IMG/VR virus record: IMGVR_UViG_3300025645_000053 | Location: 1 to 64,000 of that record | DNA length: 64,000 nt | Source: a virus | Strand: one strand, 5' to 3' | Position numbers and translations under genes: made by a program | The notes under the pieces: model-generated | The model's database searches: none | The model's input: only the letters and a program-made list of their open reading frames with translations | Told to the model about the DNA's origin: nothing | Part shown: positions 18,916 through 27,415 of the stretch, piece after piece | How the letters are laid out: each line of letters opens with the position of its first letter | Numbering within the stretch: the first letter of the stretch is position 1

Positions 18916-19701
18916 ATGTTGTTAAACTATATTACATTCATAACAGCAATAGTAATTGCACTTGTTGCAGCTTACTTCTCAATAGCAGGTTTGTCCGCTA
19001 TCTTTGCAGGAGCTGCAATATCAGTTATAATAATGGCCAGTGTTTTAGAGCTTGGCAAATTAGTTGCAGCAACATGGTTGCATCTTGAGTGGAAATGTGT
19101 TACAATAGGTATTAAGATATACTTATTAGTTGCGGTGGTAGTTCTTATGTTAATTACAAGTATCGGTATCTTCGGTTATTTGTCAAAAGCATATCTTGAA
19201 CAAACCTCCGGTAATGCTGGTGTTGCGATTGAAGTGTCTCGTCTTGAGAAAACAATCGGATCAGAACAAAAGCGTTTAGATTCGGTTGATTCTCAGTTAG
19301 GCGCACTTGATGCAGCATTGGATAAGTATATCGAACTTGGGTATGTTACAAAAGGACTTCAAGCTCGTACAGCACAAAGCGAGCAACGTGTGCAGTTGGA
19401 TTCGTTGAGAACAATGTCAATGGACAAACTGTTTAAACTAAATAATGAATTGTATGAATATACATTAGAAGATGCAAAGTTTGAAGCTGAACTTGGTCCC
19501 ATTAAATATATCGCAGAAATGCTTTATGGTAATGATGCTGAAGACAAGTATGGCAGCGCAGTTCGTCTAATGATATTTATGCTTATATTTGTGTTTGATC
19601 CGCTTGCTGTTATTCTTTTGATTATCTCGGCTGGAAGACTGAGCAAGTCTAAAGAAGCGCCAAGCATCGTTTCGTCGGATCAGATCTTAAACTTGGAGTA
19701 A
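18916..19701 (+). CDS. Membrane protein with coiled coil; late promoter at 18884
   Basis: Three N-terminal TM segments, LELGKLV, GIFGYLSKA, FVFDPLAV. Confidence 0.75.
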   Translation: MLLNYITFITAIVIALVAAYFSIAGLSAIFAGAAISVIIMASVLELGKLVAATWLHLEWKCVTIGIKIYLLVAVVVLMLITSIGIFGYLSKAYLEQTSGNAGVAIEVSRLEKTIGSEQKRLDSVDSQLGALDAALDKYIELGYVTKGLQARTAQSEQRVQLDSLRTMSMDKLFKLNNELYEYTLEDAKFEAELGPIKYIAEMLYGNDAEDKYGSAVRLMIFMLIFVFDPLAVILLIISAGRLSKSKEAPSIVSSDQILNLE

Positions 19702-20084
19702 TGATGAATCCTTTTGATTATGTAAATTCCATTACGTTAAGCAAACGTAATATTATGGTAACACCAGAGGATGAGAAAGGTTATGCAGCCTTTCTTATCA
19801 ACCGTGGCCTTTCGCAGTTCCAAGATACTATCTTTTATGCAAATGAAATGAATCGGTATCACAAATTGGACAATAAACTGCAGTATCAGTTTCTTATTAA
19901 CATTGTACGGAAACGGAAACGTTTCTCTAAATGGGCCAAGGCTGACACAGCTGATGCTGATATAATTGAAGCAATTAAGATTGTATACAATTATAGTAAT
20001 GATAAGGCTAGACAAGTTGTCGGACTTTTATCAAAAGATCAAAAGTCCGCGCTGCTCGAAAAAATACATAAGGGTGGAACTTAA
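19701..20084 (+). CDS. 62: Clamp loader small subunit gp62
   Basis: NPFDYVNSI, FYANEMN, RKRKRFSKWAK, YNYSNDKA. Confidence 0.92.
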   Translation: MMNPFDYVNSITLSKRNIMVTPEDEKGYAAFLINRGLSQFQDTIFYANEMNRYHKLDNKLQYQFLINIVRKRKRFSKWAKADTADADIIEAIKIVYNYSNDKARQVVGLLSKDQKSALLEKIHKGGT

Positions 20085-20617
20085 CGGTGCTTACACTTTG
20101 CTCCGTGATAGCGCGCGTATGTTGCAAGTTGAACACTTTCGCCGCAATGTTCACAATTGATTCTAGGACGGTTCAGCGCGGCTTGAGATTGCAGCTTTTT
20201 AGTTTCGTCTGTAGTGATAGCCCCTAATCTTGATCCGTCCTTATTAGCATACAGTTCTTTCATGGATTTTTTGAATTTGTTAGATCTTTCATCAGTCCAT
20301 TTAGGAAGAGTCATGCCTTTAGTTGGCGTCGGATTTGTTTTCATTCTAGCAGCGACACGTTTTTTAACATGTTCTTTAGTTTGCTTCTTTCCAGTTAAAG
20401 CTGCAGAAACGGCTAGTCTTCTAGCTTCTTCGCCGCTTATTTGGCCTGAAAGAGCTTTATACGCAATTAGGTCTTGCAAACGATTATGCTTTTCGTATAG
20501 AGCAAGGTGGGCAAGAGCGTGTTGTTCTACAGTCAGTTTTATTAAATTTGACTGATCGTCGCTACCGCCAGCATGGCGCGGGATGATGTGATGTTTGTGA
20601 TATATAGTATTAGGCAT
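20081..20617 (-). mobile_element. Free-standing HNH homing endonuclease (Mob-like, NUMOD3-type tail)
   Basis: HHIIPRHAGGSDDQSNLIKLTVEQHALAH; C-terminal CEHC...YHGAKC; minus-strand TATAAATA at 20692-20685. Confidence 0.9.
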
Positions 20618-20715: not shown

Positions 20716-20907
20716 ATAAATATTGTCAGGAAGCGGAAACGTTTCTCTAAATGGGCTAAGCAAGACAAGACCAATTTAGAAATGATTGAAGTGATTAAGA
20801 CGTATTACGGGTATTCAAACGACAAAGCCCGTCAAGTACTATCTCTTCTTAACAATGAACAGTTGAATGAACTACAGCGGAAGGTTGACCATGGTGGAAC
20901 AAAATAA
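20716..20907 (+). pseudogene. Displaced duplicate 3' half of gp62
   Basis: INIVRKRKRFSKWAKQDKTNLEMIEVIKTYYGYSNDKARQV...HGGTK*; 23-nt identity with 19914-19936; overlaps regA start. Confidence 0.9.
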
Positions 20908-21445: not shown

Positions 21446-21901
21446 ATGTCGAACTACGATAAGTATGATTACAGCACACAAAACCCTTTAGAAAAAATCT
21501 TTTACGATTCAGGATTCCCTTCCAATCTTTTTGATACTTTGCTATCAAAAGTAGGTAATACCACAACTTCATTCCCACCTTATGACATTATAAGCGAAAT
21601 AAATGAAGAAGACAAATCGTATCGCGTGATTATTTCTATGGCGTTAGCTGGCTTCGATAAAGATGAAATTAATATCGAGCAAAAGTCGAATATCTTAACA
21701 ATTTCTTCTGAAGGTAAATCGAAGAAGAAAGACGTAAAATACATTCAGAAAGGTATTTCTAAAAGAGCCTTTGAAAATAAATTTAAGCTATCACAATACG
21801 CTGTAATTGCTAATGCAACTATGGAAAATGGTATGCTTGAAGTATTAATTGACTTTGAAATTCCTGAAGAACTGAAAGCAAACAAAATTCAAATTAAATA
21901 A
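21446..21901 (+). CDS. hsp20: Small heat-shock protein Hsp20
   Basis: FPPYDI, ALAGF, KGISKRAF, ENGML, IPEE alpha-crystallin motifs. Confidence 0.92.
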   Translation: MSNYDKYDYSTQNPLEKIFYDSGFPSNLFDTLLSKVGNTTTSFPPYDIISEINEEDKSYRVIISMALAGFDKDEINIEQKSNILTISSEGKSKKKDVKYIQKGISKRAFENKFKLSQYAVIANATMENGMLEVLIDFEIPEELKANKIQIK

Positions 21902-21916
21902 ATTATAGGAGTTATT

Positions 21917-22207
21917 ATGTCAGATAATGTACATGTTTTAAGATTGATCACAGGTGAAGAATTAATTGCAGTAGTTGAGTCCTTTGATGGTACTGTCTAT
22001 AAGATTAATAATGTTGCGGTATTAATACCTACACAAGATAACTCTTTAGGACTAGCTCCCTTTATGGCTTACTGTGAAGATGGTCCCCTTGAATTGCGAG
22101 GGTCAGACGTCATGTTTACACGTACACCAGTCGAAGGTTTGGCAAAACAACACGGTAATATGTTCGGTAAAATAGTAACTCCTTCTAAGAAAATTATATT
22201 GGGTTAA
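21917..22207 (+). CDS. Conserved hypothetical protein (Sm-like)
   Basis: VLRLITGEELIA; C-terminal IVTPSKKIIL. Confidence 0.7.
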   Translation: MSDNVHVLRLITGEELIAVVESFDGTVYKINNVAVLIPTQDNSLGLAPFMAYCEDGPLELRGSDVMFTRTPVEGLAKQHGNMFGKIVTPSKKIILG

Positions 22208-22214
22208 ATTTAAG

Positions 22215-22250
22215 AAAGGGTATCATTTCTATTGACATGATACCCTTTTT
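22215..22250 (+). terminator. Terminator hairpin overlapping the -35 of the gp43A promoter
   Basis: AAAGGGTATCAT...ATGATACCCTTTTT with TTGACA inside and TATAAT downstream. Confidence 0.7.
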
Positions 22251-22290
22251 GTTATATAATAGTATTTGATTTTTACAATGGAGTACCACC

Positions 22291-23286
22291 TTGACTGAAT
22301 TCTATACCTCCGTCGCCCGCTACGGCAATTCGCTTTTATATCGTGGATACAAAGGCAAGCATAAAGTACGCGAAAAGATAAAGTTCAAACCTACCTTATA
22401 CCTCAAAGATAACGAAAGTGAAACAAAAGCACTTGATGGCGTTTCAGTTTCTCCAATGCAATACTCTTCAATGCGCGATGCAAAAGAATTTATTGAGCAA
22501 TACAAAGATGTGCCTAACTTTGAAATATACGGCAATCGTAATTACATAGTTCAATACATTCAAGAAAAGTTCCCTGGTAATATTGCGTTTGATATGGACA
22601 ATGTTAATGTTGCGGCTATTGACATTGAAGTTGTTGCTGATGAGTTTCCACATGCCGAACAGGCACTATATCCTATTGTTTCAATTGCAATGATGTCTAC
22701 TCAAGATAGCATGCGACGTGTATGGGGATTACCTAACTATAAAAATACTCGTGATGATGTAATTTATTATCACTGTAAGAACGAAGCCGAACTGTTAATG
22801 AAGTTCATAACACATTGGTCAAATCCTGAATATACTCCAGATATCGTTACAGGCTGGAATACTCGATTCTTTGATACACCTTATATTATCAATCGACTTG
22901 CTAAAACTTTAGGTATTGAATTTGCCAAAAAGTATTCTCCATGGGGTTTGATAAATGAACGCATGGTTACGGTTAACGGTCAAAAGCAACAGAGCTACGA
23001 AGTAACAGGATTGCCTGAACTTGATTACATGGAGTTATTTAAGAAGTTTACTATTAATACATTAGGCGCTCAAGAATCATATAAACTTGATCATATTGCA
23101 AACGTTGTGCTTGGCGATCGGAAATTGTCATACGAAGAAAACACACAGATGTATGCTTTACTACGCGACGCCGAAGGCTGTAACCCTGACGAGAAACTGA
23201 CCAAGCTAGAAGACATGGACGAGTTACAACGCACGTGTCTTCTTCGTGATCGTGTACGCGCCTTACGCTTGTCTCGAGGGGTTTAG
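22291..23286 (+). CDS. 43: DNA polymerase gp43 subunit A (N-terminal domain, Exo I/II)
   Basis: DIE (Exo I), GWNTRFFD (Exo II), ESYKLDHIA; ends in a non-homologous helical tail. Confidence 0.93.
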   Translation: MTEFYTSVARYGNSLLYRGYKGKHKVREKIKFKPTLYLKDNESETKALDGVSVSPMQYSSMRDAKEFIEQYKDVPNFEIYGNRNYIVQYIQEKFPGNIAFDMDNVNVAAIDIEVVADEFPHAEQALYPIVSIAMMSTQDSMRRVWGLPNYKNTRDDVIYYHCKNEAELLMKFITHWSNPEYTPDIVTGWNTRFFDTPYIINRLAKTLGIEFAKKYSPWGLINERMVTVNGQKQQSYEVTGLPELDYMELFKKFTINTLGAQESYKLDHIANVVLGDRKLSYEENTQMYALLRDAEGCNPDEKLTKLEDMDELQRTCLLRDRVRALRLSRGV

Positions 23287-23976
23287 TTTGCAATTATCAT
23301 CATGCCAGCGCTTTAAGTTAGAATATGTGGTTACTACATTACAGTGTTGACATTTTCGAGTTTTATGATTTATTTTCCCACGGGCGATTTCATCACTAAA
23401 TTGGCCAAGGCTGTCGATATAAATGCCCCACCCTTTTGCCGACATCTTGACTGCGCCTTTATACGCTCTTATAAGCGAATTAATATCGTGTTGGCTAATC
23501 ACGTCGGCATGCTTGGTATGGAAGTCCATACGGGTCCCTTTAAAGACGGTTGTACTGTTTTTAAACGTGTATGTGTGATCGTCATAGTTGGGATTAGCCT
23601 TTCCGCTAGAGCGTATAGAACACGCTTCTATAAACCGGCGTTTATGCGCTTCATAAATAGTTGATGAGAATTTTAGACCTAGCCGTTGGGTATATCCAAA
23701 GTGAAAAAACGTATGAAGCGCGAATGTCATTTTACATGTGTCTTTGCCAATAGTGAATTTAGTTAATAGCAAATGGGCGATATAATGCTCTCTAAATGTA
23801 TATGGGAGCATTATTGTTCCACCAAAACTGTGGGGTAGCACATGATGATTTTCATGCTCAGCCGACGTATAAGTACGTTGTTCACTGACTATTTTATTTG
23901 CTAATGCTAAATACGCCCGATAATACTTGTTGCATTTAAAGTTATTATAATTTAAAAATTCGTTTACCATTGACAT
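23263..23976 (-). mobile_element. Free-standing HNH homing endonuclease between gp43A and gp43B
   Basis: HENHHVLPHSFGG, FREHYIAHLLL, C-terminal CQHC...RWHDDNC. Confidence 0.88.
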
Positions 23977-24025
23977 TACATCTCTATTAGTTTATAATAC
24001 TATATATAACATTAAGGATCTTACT

Positions 24026-24715
24026 ATGAACATTGATTATTTACTTAGCTCTAATCTAGATAATTTATCTGACGATGAATTGATTGCCTTAGATGCTGAG
24101 CTTACGGCAGAAGCTAATCTGCTCGCCGGATACAAAGGAATTGATTATAATATAGTCGATATTGAGTTAATTCTTCGCATGGATGATAAACTTCAATTGA
24201 TTGGTCTGGCTGCGACGATGGCTTATAGCGCTGGTGTTAATTACGGTGATACATTAGGCACAACTGCTATTTGGGATGCTATCATCTATCGTGATTTGTG
24301 TTCTCGTAACATGGCTGTACCACCTAACAAGCATAAGTTCAAAGATGCGTTTGAAGGCGGCTGGGTTAAAGCTCCTAAGGTTGGTCTACATAATTGGGTA
24401 GTATCATTCGATTTGGCATCGCTTTATCCCCACTTAATAATGCAAGCAAACATATCTCCAGAAACCTTAGTTGAAGGCGATCGTATAGACGGTCTTACAG
24501 TTAATAACTTGTTGGAACGTAAAAGCTTTGAGGTACCAGACGGTCGAGCGTTATGTCCTAATGGAGTTATGTTTGATACCGAAAAGCAAGGTGTCATTCC
24601 TGCGCTAATCAAAACCAAGTATGCCGCTCGTAAACGTATCAAAAAAGAAATGCTTTCAGCGCAACAAGAATTGGTTAACGTCGAGGAGGAAATGAAACGT
24701 CGAGGTATCACTTAA
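24026..24715 (+). CDS. 43: DNA polymerase gp43 subunit B (Exo III, palm motif A, first fingers helix)
   Basis: DYNIVD (Exo III), SFDLASLYP (motif A), NISPET; own TTGACA/TATAAT promoter and SD. Confidence 0.93.
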   Translation: MNIDYLLSSNLDNLSDDELIALDAELTAEANLLAGYKGIDYNIVDIELILRMDDKLQLIGLAATMAYSAGVNYGDTLGTTAIWDAIIYRDLCSRNMAVPPNKHKFKDAFEGGWVKAPKVGLHNWVVSFDLASLYPHLIMQANISPETLVEGDRIDGLTVNNLLERKSFEVPDGRALCPNGVMFDTEKQGVIPALIKTKYAARKRIKKEMLSAQQELVNVEEEMKRRGIT

Positions 24716-24870
24716 TGATACTTCACTTTGACTCATTGTCTAATAGCGATTTCACGGAGTATTTACGCAAAGCAAACGCTTTACATCGGCTTGGTCACTT
24801 TCGACATTTAACACCGCGTGAGTTAGCAAAACATATTTATGATACTGAAATGAAAAATAAATGCGAATAA
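24715..24870 (+). CDS. Small hypothetical protein (51 aa) inside the gp43 locus
   Basis: MILHFDSLSNSDF...KNKCE; TAATG overlap with the gp43B stop. Confidence 0.5.
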   Translation: MILHFDSLSNSDFTEYLRKANALHRLGHFRHLTPRELAKHIYDTEMKNKCE

Positions 24871-24967
24871 CTGCAGTATTAAGAATGTGATATGTATAAA
24901 TAATAATGAACAGAGTGGTATTGGTAGTACCACTCCATCCTCAGACATAACCAACAGGAAATTACTC

Positions 24968-25711
24968 ATGTCCATTACTATTTATCAACACCAGTTAGAC
25001 ACTCATTTAGAAACTGTAATATCATCATTAAAAGCAGGCGAGTCATTACTTCAGCTATGCAAGAAATACAGCATAAACTATCATGCCTTTCGTAAAGTGA
25101 TAAAGCGTGATTATCCAACGTTGTTGTCAATGAAAAAGTCAAAACAAATGCGTGAAAGAATGTCTGCTTCAACTCGGAAGTTCTCACCTGACGAAGAGCA
25201 ACATATAATTGAACGCTACATGGCCGGCGAAAGCGCATATCAGATTCTTAAAGACTATGATGTTGTAGTCAATGTTATATACAGCATTCTAAAAAGAAAC
25301 AACATTCCTAAGAATAACCAGTCCAGTTATTGGACTGATGAAATGCGAGAAAAGCAACGGCAGTTGTGCTATGATGGTATTGTTGGCATACATGCTCAAG
25401 GTGATGGTGCATATCGTTTCACTAAACCTGAGAGAGACTTTGCTAAATGGTGTGAAGATAACACCATTGCATACGAAAGACAATTCCAAATAACAAAAGG
25501 CACTCACCGTTATGATTTCATTATAAGCGATACTAATATCTTAGTAGAAATTGATGGTGAATATTGGCATAGCACACCAGAACAAACCGCAAAGGACCGT
25601 TCGTTTGAGGAATATGCAATTGACAACGGTTACGCCGTTATTCGCTTTACTGATAAAGAAATGCGTAAAACAAAAAATAATTGTTTACAAGCACTTAAAA
25701 GTTTGATATAA
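24968..25711 (+). mobile_element. Free-standing Vsr/DUF559-type homing endonuclease with N-terminal HTH repeats
   Basis: TKPE, YDF, VEIDGEYWH, GYAVIRF; late promoter TATAAATA at 24895. Confidence 0.85.
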
Positions 25712-25739
25712 TAGAACATTACAATATGAGGAATACACT

Positions 25740-27092
25740 ATGGATTTAAAAACACTAAGCGACGATGAGCTGCGAGCTTTACATTATGAATACAGTAAAA
25801 AGTATTCAACGCTTGACAACCAACAAATGAGTATCAAAATCCTAAACTTATTGGGCCTCTAATCAGGAATGATTAGATGAGAATCGGGTGAACTCAGGGA
25901 AGGCTTTAATATGCTAATCCTGAGCCAAGACCTTTATTATGTAAAGGTAAGGTGCAACGACTATCCGAAAGGAGTAGAGATCAAGTGGTCTCGAAGCGCC
26001 CGACAGCCAGACCGGCTGATGATATAGTCTGATCTTATACGAAAGTATAAGCTGGGTTCGTCCCGGGATATGATTAACGCTCGTATCCGAACATCATGAA
26101 TGAACAGTTTGTATGGTGCGATGGGTTCAGCTTACTTCAGATATTTTGATTTGCGAATGGCTGAAGGCATTACATTGTATGGTCAGTTATCAATTCGTTG
26201 GGCTGAGAAATCGTTTAACAACTTCATTAATAAAATCATGGGTACTACCAAATGTGATTATGTTATTGCTGCTGATACTGATTCTAATTATTTAGATTTT
26301 GGCCCACTTGTCGAAAAACTCGGATTAGCAAAAACTAATGATACTAAAGGTATTGTTGATATTATCGACAAAATGTGCAGCGATCAGTTTGAACCAATGA
26401 TTGCTAAATGTTATGACGATCTTGCTAAATACATGCATGCCTATCAGAACAAAATGGTTATGGAACGTGAAGTAATTGCTGATCTTGGTATATGGACTGC
26501 AAAGAAACGTTATATACTAAATGTACATAACTCTGAAGGTGTATCATTTAAAGAACCTAAACTAAAGATCATGGGTATCGAAGCAATTAAATCTTCAACA
26601 CCAGCAATATGTCGTGATGCTTTAAAGAATATCTTCAAGGTTATAATGACTGGTTCTGAGCTTAAAACCCGTAAGGCTATTACTGACTTTCAAGAGTTCT
26701 TTCATGCTCAGCCGCCTGAAGCAGTATCGTTTCCACGTGGAGTTTCTGATATTGTTAAATGGCGCGATGGTGACGGATATAAGTCAAGATGTCCTATACA
26801 TGTACGCGGCGCTATAATGTATAATGTTGGTATTGAGCAGAAGAAACTTAAAAAGTATACTGCAGTTCGTAATGGCGACAAAGTTAAGTTCTGTTACCTT
26901 AAGTTGCCTAATCCCATCAAGGAAAATGTTATTTCGTTTCCTGATTATTTACCGCCTGAGTTAAATTTGAATGCGTATGTTGATTATGATAAGCAATTCA
27001 GTAAAACCTTTATAGATCCAATTGAACCTGTACTTAAGGCTATCGGTTGGTCAGTTGAAGAGCAGTCGAGTTTGGAGGATTTCTTCGGTTAA
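25740..27092 (+). CDS. 43: DNA polymerase gp43 subunit C; spliced join(25740..25843,26099..27092), 365 aa
   Basis: Splicing restores QMSIKIL-MNSLYG (motif B); ADTDS motif C, KKRY, C-terminal clamp-binding SLEDFF. Confidence 0.92.
25844..26098 (+). mobile_element. ORF-less group I intron (255 nt, IA-like with P7.1/P7.2)
   Basis: P1 CCU|AA/UUGGG with U-G at the splice site; P3 UCGGGUG/CGCCCGA; P4 CUCAGG/CCUGAG; P7 GACUA/UAGUC; P9 GAAA hairpin; terminal G 26098. Confidence 0.93.
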
Positions 27093-27196
27093 GGTATATC
27101 CATATATCAAACAGTTCTATAAAAAACTATATACATTAGTCGAACTGTTTGATATAATAGTACCATAAATTGATAACAACCTAACGGAAATACATT

Positions 27197-27415
27197 ATGA
27201 CTATACTTGCTAAAGCTCAAAGCCCAAAAATCGAAATAAACCTAGACGGTCCTGACGGCAATGCTTATTGTCTATTAAGCTGCGCTAGATACTTATGTCA
27301 GAAATACGCTCTTGACTATGATGCAATACACGCTGAATTAACTGCTGGCGACTACGAAGATCTTATTCAAACTTTCGATAAACATTTTGGTAATTATGTG
27401 AATTTATATAGATAA
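27197..27415 (+). CDS. Early hypothetical protein
   Basis: INLDGPDGNAY...GDYEDL..FDKHFG; behind a promoter cassette. Confidence 0.75.
   Translation: MTILAKAQSPKIEINLDGPDGNAYCLLSCARYLCQKYALDYDAIHAELTAGDYEDLIQTFDKHFGNYVNLYR

Follow-up and report, generated by a model that had tools for sequence, protein, structure and literature searches.

Homing endonuclease genes at two predicted helical-hairpin tips of a T4-like phage DNA polymerase encoded in three pieces

Splicing-free, non-covalent rescue of a broken gene by endonuclease-borne tails has already been published for Aeh1 NrdA, which is split into NrdA-a and NrdA-b by the HNH endonuclease gene mobE (Crona et al., Nucleic Acids Research 2011, PMC3045599). 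The basic tail of NrdA-a and the acidic tail of NrdA-b arose with mobE and are essential for activity, and similar tails on other fragmented genes were predicted by the same authors (PMC3045599). For the T4-type DNA polymerase gp43, splits at the fingertip are described in the T4-related phages 25, 31, 44RR, 65 and 133 (Petrov 2006, 2010, as summarised in PMC3061061 and PMC2988022); in phage 25, an endonuclease gene lies between the gp43 pieces, and the 43A and 43B products are reported to co-purify and to be polymerase-active (PMC2988022, citing Petrov 2010). A break near the tip of the fingers hairpin is also tolerated in the family B DNA polymerase (PolB) of Pfu, where an engineered split yields separate fragments that reassemble (PMC3061061), and fractured genes with split inteins and Vsr-like endonucleases, together with an intein-less example, have been reported (Dassa et al., Nucleic Acids Research 2009, PMC2677866). 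Here we describe a gp43 gene that is broken twice, in the virus record IMGVR_UViG_3300025645_000053 from IMG/VR. The window, the whole stretch of DNA analysed, comprises the first 64 kilobases (kb) of this 77.9-kb record, which is estimated to be about 43% complete.

The phage is a distant T4-like one: the best phage matches of its polymerase are cyanomyovirus genes annotated as DNA polymerase, at <50% identity, and megablast of the locus against GenBank phages gave two short partial matches, each about 2% of the query. The polymerase is of the T4-type family B (phmmer against the RB69 and T4 gp43 chains, E 1e-27 to 1e-36) and is encoded by three open reading frames (ORFs), A, B and C, with an endonuclease gene at each of the two breaks. 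The gene is contiguous at these sites in relatives, as seen for the unsplit locus L069 versus the split locus L005, and for the unsplit fingertip of locus L002 versus that of the window.

We consider it reasonably probable that two homing endonuclease genes have broken gp43 at the tips of helical hairpins, and that the matching peptides at the breaks are the reinforced free ends of the hairpin arms. In this proposal, two free-standing endonuclease genes would have interrupted the gene, each in a predicted tight turn of an alpha-helical hairpin: at the B/C break the tip of the native fingers hairpin, and at the A/B break a module of about 75 residues, formed by a tail and a head, just before the helix of Exo III. 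The upstream arm would stop with basic residues, and at the fingertip also with Gly, and the downstream arm would consist of a short leader followed by a strong autonomous helix start (hydrophobic staple and capping box, L-S-D-D-E-L). The pieces would be translated separately from their own ribosome-binding sites, after which the two arms may pack antiparallel as in the uncut hairpin. Opposite charge and the native interface of the exonuclease domain would aid pairing at A/B, native domain interfaces would supply the specificity, and a working polymerase would be restored without RNA or protein splicing. The pieces, their ends and the two endonuclease genes are as follows.

22291-23286, plus strand: gp43 piece A, 331 amino acids (aa), N-terminal domain with Exo I and Exo II (Pfam DNA_pol_B_exo1, E 4.6e-21)
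23161-23283, plus strand: tail of piece A, residues 291-331, an acidic stretch followed by a basic helix (...ELQRTCLLRDRVRALRLSRGV)
23263-23976, minus strand: Mob-like HNH homing endonuclease gene, 237 aa (PHROG 655 homing endonuclease, E 1.6e-18)
24026-24715, plus strand: gp43 piece B, 229 aa, with Exo III, the start of the palm and the first fingers helix (Pfam DNA_pol_B, E 7e-17)
24026-24133, plus strand: head of piece B, residues 1-36, acidic, with L14-S15-D-D-E18-L19 (from family conservation and the L002 model)
24683-24712, plus strand: C-terminal end of piece B, EEEMKRRGIT, the end of the first fingers helix, with Gly227 (from the L002 comparison and model)
24968-25711, plus strand: Vsr-like (DUF559) homing endonuclease gene with a helix-turn-helix region (Pfam DUF559, E 3.5e-7); the start at 24968 was picked by alignment to the starts in relatives
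25740-25843, plus strand: gp43 piece C, exon 1, head MDLKTLSDDELRAL followed by the native second fingers helix
26099-27092, plus strand: gp43 piece C, exon 2, with motif B, palm and thumb (PHROG 262 positions 520-852, E 1.7e-133)

A preliminary description of this DNA had pointed out four peptides, at the end of A, the head and end of B and the head of C, and all four are found where it placed them; the terminus of A, RVRALRLSRGV, is encoded at 23251-23283. The near-identity that it noted between the starts of the two downstream pieces was confirmed. The B head NLDNLSDDELIAL (residues 10-22, 24053-24091) and the C head DLKTLSDDELRAL (residues 2-14, 25743-25781) are identical in 9 of 13 residues, and no other N-terminus in the approximately 124 crude ORFs of the 77.9-kb record matches the B head as well as the C head does: in BLOSUM62 scoring of 13-mers the C head reaches 38, the second-best N-terminus 26 and the strongest match at any other position 30. 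Of the 10 instances of the relaxed motif h-[ST]-[DEN]-x-E-h in 23,740 residues, only those of the two heads are among the first 20 positions of a protein. At the DNA level, 23 of the 39 bases in the 13 codons of each head are identical (counted by eye) and the Ser codons differ (TCT versus AGC); a recent DNA duplication of the head was therefore rejected.

A hydrophobic staple combined with a capping box is an established pattern for capping the start of a helix. This N-cap pattern is present in the B head at L14-S15-D-D-E18-L19; in the seven A/B cassettes (the window and its relatives with the same tail, endonuclease gene and head), position 15 is always S, T or D and position 18 always E or D, and L11, L19, L22 and A30 are invariant. 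In an AlphaFold2 model of the L002 piece, the long head helix begins at residue 16 (assigned by DSSP), which makes Ser15 the predicted N-cap.

At the A/B break, residues 1-290 of piece A correspond to positions 6-302 of PHROG 262, with the alignment ending at residue 302 of T4 gp43 and residue 306 of RB69 gp43, and residues 37-222 of piece B correspond to PHROG 262 positions 309-496; against RB69, B residues 37-219 align to 319-499, and residue 219 equals RB69 residue 499, in the fingers. From these alignment limits, Exo I and Exo II reside on A and Exo III (I-D-Y-N-I-V-D) on B, so that the break crosses the proofreading active site, placing part of it on one chain and part on another. Residues 291-331 of A and 1-36 of B are without counterpart in the PHROG 262 polymerase profile or in RB69/T4 gp43. 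The earlier statement that unsplit gp43 lacks these extensions holds for that profile and these two proteins, and fails for a few unsplit polymerases: P0095 and P0192 hold tail and head as one contiguous insertion. P0095 (911 aa) reads …LSYEDAGNLFLLLLTSDGVSYPDKPTDELPEFQRCCKIRDELKRKLEENATEDLEQQYAAAQEKADHECYRIGLEYN…, and its structural model (predicted local distance difference test, pLDDT, 87; 77-92 locally) contains a helix at residues 321-338, a three-residue turn and a helix at 342-381 that runs into Exo III, the whole model superposing on RB69 gp43 with a template modelling score of about 0.82. Judged from this model, tail and head appear to form the arms, one each, of a helical hairpin insertion of about 75 residues, with the endonuclease gene at its tip, and the short turn suggests that the arms pack antiparallel.

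The arrangement of tail, HNH endonuclease gene and head is also found in L002, L005, L085, L086, L087 and L088, where HNH homologues occupy the same gp43 site with identities to the window's gene of 88, 51, 43, 40, 38 and 37%, respectively. A search with the single HNH sequence gave only L002 and one fragment, and an alignment query reached the further loci; against the annotated Mob-like HNH endonuclease genes of RB16 and others, tblastn identity is at most 30%. The polymerases of the module-bearing loci are down to about 30-50% identical to that of the window, and in L087 the endonuclease gene is oriented the same way as the polymerase gene. Homologous tails are present in L002, L005, L086, L087 and L088, with D300, M309 and C316 invariant. 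An Arg-Gly end is seen in two of the seven tails, those of the window and its close relative L002, and in P0095 the hairpin turn contains Asn. For the window pieces, to which the charge calculations are confined, the acidic head and basic tail proposed for this break were borne out: the last 20 residues of the A tail carry a net charge of +5 (isoelectric point, pI, 12) and the B head one of -8 (pI 4.1). The DNA of L005 and L069 is 88.8% identical upstream and 98.8% identical downstream of the A/B site; at the site itself L005 has a block of 1009 nucleotides (nt) with tail, endonuclease gene and head, and L069 has 63 nt. In L005, tail and head are thus within the same inserted DNA block as the endonuclease gene.

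The head forms a widespread family. With a profile built from the seven heads, a search of 1.84 billion representative proteins returned 611 hits with E up to 0.001. Among the best 150 of these, 83 have Exo III no more than 75 residues from their start, many of them unsplit genes whose calls are truncated; inspection assigned true heads to about 45 of the best 150 (50%-identity clusters), which look like genuine split pieces rather than truncated calls, a distinction of use for annotation. The head stands at the N-terminus in dozens of 50%-identity clusters, on proteins of about 570-600 residues, in which B is fused to C, or of about 230-250 residues, in three-piece forms. A word-based search for longer proteins containing the B head found none; they were found later by the HMMER profile search. 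In P0214, a polymerase closer to T4 proper, a contiguous insertion of roughly 100 residues, ending …EELYAIVSDWHSEVSHQRYIDYN, is located at the same position before Exo III, and this position may be a general insertion hotspot.

At the B/C break the fingertip helices are largely native sequence, a point against the initial interpretation. L002, which is 77% identical in B, has the same A/B split and an unsplit fingertip without an intron. Its fingertip reads …EEKIKKEGSTAELEAL… (EEKIKKEG-S-TAELEAL, EEKIKKEG-S-TAELEALRYQCDKRYSTLDNQQ), so that EEEMKRRG and SDDELRAL of the window both match sequence that is contiguous in L002, and only I-T and M-D-L-K-T-L are extra in the window. The AlphaFold2 model of the L002 piece (pLDDT 89.6) has a helix at residues 190-226, a turn at G227-S228-T229 and a helix at 230-264, with Gly227 as the first non-helical residue; by this model, the B/C break of the window is in the turn between the two fingers helices.

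Homologues of the Vsr-like endonuclease (27-50% identity) are found in the gp43 fingertip splits of L085 and L164-L172. The upstream pieces of fingertip splits end in EMIKRGIS, ELRKRGVN, ELKRRGAKA, EMKRRGLK or EIRRRGDEKSK, with [KR]-[KR]-G near the end of 11 of 15 such pieces, and the protein P0006 ends in EMKRRGIE. The downstream pieces start with MLEDYTKLSDSEL, MMNLKNLSNEEL, MELSEYTDDEL, MSEDLTQLSMEAL or MKNLKNMSDAEL, and heads similar to the C head occur in L085, L164, L165, L172 and L177. L085 has a three-piece polymerase like that of the window. In its record (L085 1-930, IMGVR_UViG_2651869530_000001) the C piece is broken again, between a head ORF at 810-926 and an ORF at 2-700; Rfam detects no intron in this second gap of about 110 nt, which may reflect a frameshift or a sequencing error.

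In a comparison of the two junctions as families, the A/B heads and the C heads align in hhalign over 23 columns with a probability of 89%, P 2.2e-6 and a score of 29.5, versus a maximum of 13.4 in 100 column shuffles. The C heads match unsplit fingertips from about residue 14 onward (hhalign score 56), and their first ~13 residues are absent from the unsplit forms tested. These profile alignments indicate a conserved element common to the downstream heads of the A/B and B/C breaks. Neither unsplit fingertips (score 4.5) nor the native capped helix before Exo III (profile score 6.3, P 0.63) resemble the A/B heads, and on these scores a copied native fingertip and a duplicated pre-Exo III helix were both rejected as their source. 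The upstream partners have only a basic end in common, the A/B tail scoring at noise level against fingertip-end profiles (probability 5.7%, score 14.8). Of a docking pair present at both breaks, as originally envisaged, the downstream half is therefore recovered and the upstream half is not, the Arg-Gly end at A/B being confined to the window and L002; copying of the A/B head from the fingertip was apparent neither in the DNA nor in the profiles. In its strict form the motif is present in the first 30 residues of 7 of 535 ORFs from endonuclease-associated loci, and four of the seven are gp43 downstream pieces. The predicted enrichment at split-gene junctions is accordingly strong for gp43, and among these 535 ORFs no other gene split by the same endonuclease families was seen to carry the motif. 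Taken as a whole, the initial interpretation is partly supported.

The remaining features of the locus concern expression of the pieces and the intron in piece C.

24014-24018, plus strand: Shine-Dalgarno sequence AAGGA, 7 nt 5' of the B ATG (read from the sequence)
24715-24870, plus strand: ORF of 51 aa whose ATG overlaps the B stop codon by one base (TAATG), from the ORF list; function unassigned
25728-25732, plus strand: Shine-Dalgarno sequence GAGGA, 7 nt 5' of the C ATG (read from the sequence)
25844-26098, plus strand: ORF-less group I intron in piece C, immediately upstream of motif B (Rfam RF00028, 98.1 bits, E 3.5e-25, at 25825-26051)

The probable splice sites of the intron are those that restore K-I-L-M-N-S-L-Y-G. 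An Rfam search at E up to 1 over 21900-27400 gave only this intron, at 25825-26051, and none at either break. The A/B endonuclease gene is on the opposite strand, its 3' end covering the last 24 nt of A, and B and C each have their own strong Shine-Dalgarno sequence and ATG. RNA splicing across the breaks was ruled out on the grounds that no intron is present there and that B and C have their own start signals. The 51-aa ORF, which is without a Pfam or PHROG match, may be translationally coupled to B.

Several other explanations of the matching peptides can be weighed against these data. The one put forward in the preliminary description, a single portable docking pair of an acidic LSDDEL helix and a basic, RG-ended helix that originated at the fingertip, was duplicated at the exonuclease junction and now serves repeatedly as a code, seems unlikely to us. 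It accounts well for the likeness of the head families (P 2.2e-6, score 29.5 versus a shuffle maximum of 13.4), for a shared part that is missing from the unsplit relatives tested, for the motif in nearly all A/B heads and its enrichment on gp43 downstream pieces (four of seven motif-bearing ORFs among 535), and for the presence of tail and head in the endonuclease block of L005 versus L069. Against it, the upstream families are unlike (probability 5.7%), with RG at A/B in only two of seven cassettes, which are close relatives; the heads are identical in 23 of 39 bases, with TCT and AGC as Ser codons, and the A/B heads score 4.5 against unsplit fingertips. Moreover, the two endonucleases are from unrelated families, and the motif was found neither on other split genes near these families nor in the NrdA-b head peptide of Aeh1 (PMC3045599). 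Like heads in one enzyme would also invite mispairing, so that specificity must lie elsewhere and the shared motif is unlikely to be a specificity code.

That the extensions are functionless leftovers of insertion, kept for their start and stop contexts or for the overlap with the endonuclease gene, is improbable. The last 24 nt of A do overlap the 3' end of that gene on the opposite strand, and A-rich codons are common in N-termini at start sites; yet conservation of about 75 residues, with L11, L19, L22, A30, D300, M309 and C316 invariant, extends to cassettes whose polymerases share only 30-50% identity, the helix is amphipathic, the hairpin is modelled with confidence, and fused forms that contain no endonuclease gene still have the module. 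Marginally less credit still is due to an origin of the B head in the native helix that precedes Exo III (LSYEE…YQKF), as a target duplication at insertion of the endonuclease gene followed by divergence. In many unsplit relatives this native segment is the part to which tblastn aligned B residues 8-36, and in P0133 it was hit by the head profile; an aromatic residue is kept about 4-5 positions before I-D-Y-N, and a duplicated gp62 C-terminus flanks the related endonuclease gene at 20081-20617. Set against this are the profile comparison of head and native segment (score 6.3, P 0.63), the native-like copy of the helix that piece A retains, and the P0095 model, in which the head forms a helix of its own that pairs with the tail via a tight turn. 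An origin as split-intein remnants, finally, would fit the fractured genes in which the same endonuclease families occur, an arrangement described by Dassa 2009 (PMC2677866) and resembled by the UvsX-like genes of L098 and L100, where relatives of the HNH endonuclease lie between apparent split-intein halves. This origin is very improbable here: the Pfam search found no Hint or intein domain, the head is predicted to be helical and the tail homologue in P0095 is largely so, stretches of 41 and 36 residues are too short, and no His-Asn plus nucleophile is present at the end of the head.

Breakage at hairpin tips with reinforced arm ends remains our preferred explanation, and the likeness of the two heads is most likely the result of the same selection acting on a newly made N-terminal helix; a common origin of the heads or an exchange between cassettes is a less likely possibility. 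Several points weigh against this explanation. The antiparallel packing of the arms is extrapolated from three-residue turns in models, and both models are of relatives (P0095 and L002) rather than of the window's own pieces. The likeness of the heads exceeds the capping box, with [ND]-L-x-x-L before the Ser and 23 profile columns aligned, and the native capped helix (LSYEE…) does not score against the heads, so that generic capping alone may under-explain the likeness. Charge complementarity is slight at B/C (B end 0, C head -2), the unsplit forms of P0095 and L002 may be ancestral or may result from endonuclease loss, and the cassette samples are small. A further idea, which we advance tentatively and hold to be possible but doubtful, is that two unrelated endonuclease families carry flanking code for arm extensions, delivering the remedy with the cut, and that [ND]-L-x-x-L-S-D-x-E-L is a transferable assembly tag, either exchanged or twice selected. 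If so, this element could be a natural tag for non-covalent ligation. Should the arms indeed zip together, the locus would suggest a structural rule for the positions at which a selfish endonuclease gene can interrupt an essential gene and leave the phage alive, namely to cut at the tip of a helical hairpin and to reinforce the cut ends.

Other mobile elements lie in the vicinity of gp43 and in its relatives. A second PHROG 655 HNH endonuclease gene is located at 20081-20617 on the minus strand, after an ORF of 127 aa (19701-20084) which we take to be gene 62-like. An ORF of 41 aa at 20782-20907, overlapping the start of a regA-like gene, repeats the C-terminus of the 19701-20084 protein (…YSNDKARQV…GGT) and looks like a target duplication left by insertion. 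Just upstream of the Vsr-like endonuclease gene, at 24895-24902, is TATAAATA, the T4 late-promoter consensus; the window has 14 copies where chance predicts about 10, and no conclusion can be drawn from this copy by itself. In L098 (1561-3767) and L100 (1481-3785), relatives of the HNH endonuclease lie between RecA/UvsX-like halves with apparent split-intein halves, judged by eye (…VVTHN then T/S…). Several head-bearing polymerase pieces (P0075, P0081, P0091, P0093, P0152 and P0133) run into intein-like sequence right after D-T-D-S, and P0133 has an apparent intein in the exonuclease domain. These head-bearing polymerases seem to collect many kinds of mobile element.

When compared with the described systems, the locus shares with fingertip-split gp43 a T4-like PolB in two cistrons with the break in the turn between the fingers helices. 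In contrast to phage 25, where the intervening gene is of the GIY-YIG type, the gene here is Vsr-like, and gp43 also has a group I intron and is broken once more, in the exonuclease domain. The accessible part of the literature on fingertip-split gp43 does not mention the E-x-[KR]-[KR]-R-G end or the L-S-D-x-E-L head, and our literature search gave no account of an exonuclease-domain split with a conserved module, of natural fused and split versions of it, or of a head element shared between sites. Unlike the gp43 breaks, the Pfu PolB split is artificial, with neither added end sequences nor a mobile element. As in the fractured genes of Dassa et al., the same endonuclease families stand between the halves of a replication gene in marine phage-like DNA, whereas the gp43 pieces contain no intein, so that any reunion would be non-covalent. 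Closest is Aeh1 NrdA: in both, a free-standing HNH endonuclease gene of the Mob type interrupts an essential, replication-related gene, without splicing, and the pieces have a basic C-terminal tail upstream and an acidic N-terminal tail downstream (clear at A/B and weak at B/C in gp43), and the tails are proposed, by Crona et al. for NrdA, to have come with the endonuclease gene. The gene is a different one, and the tails are unrelated in sequence, the NrdA-b head peptide MIEHERIYEVYE being without the motif. The NrdA tails serve dimerisation of heterodimers rather than contact between a and b, in contrast to the gp43 tails, which we read from the models as probable arms of a helical hairpin. 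The gp43 tails also form a conserved and widespread family. The gp43 case is thus a variant of the known tolerance of gene fragmentation, and it extends the tail idea of Aeh1 NrdA to a large conserved tail family that is widespread in metagenomes and comes in natural fused and split versions.

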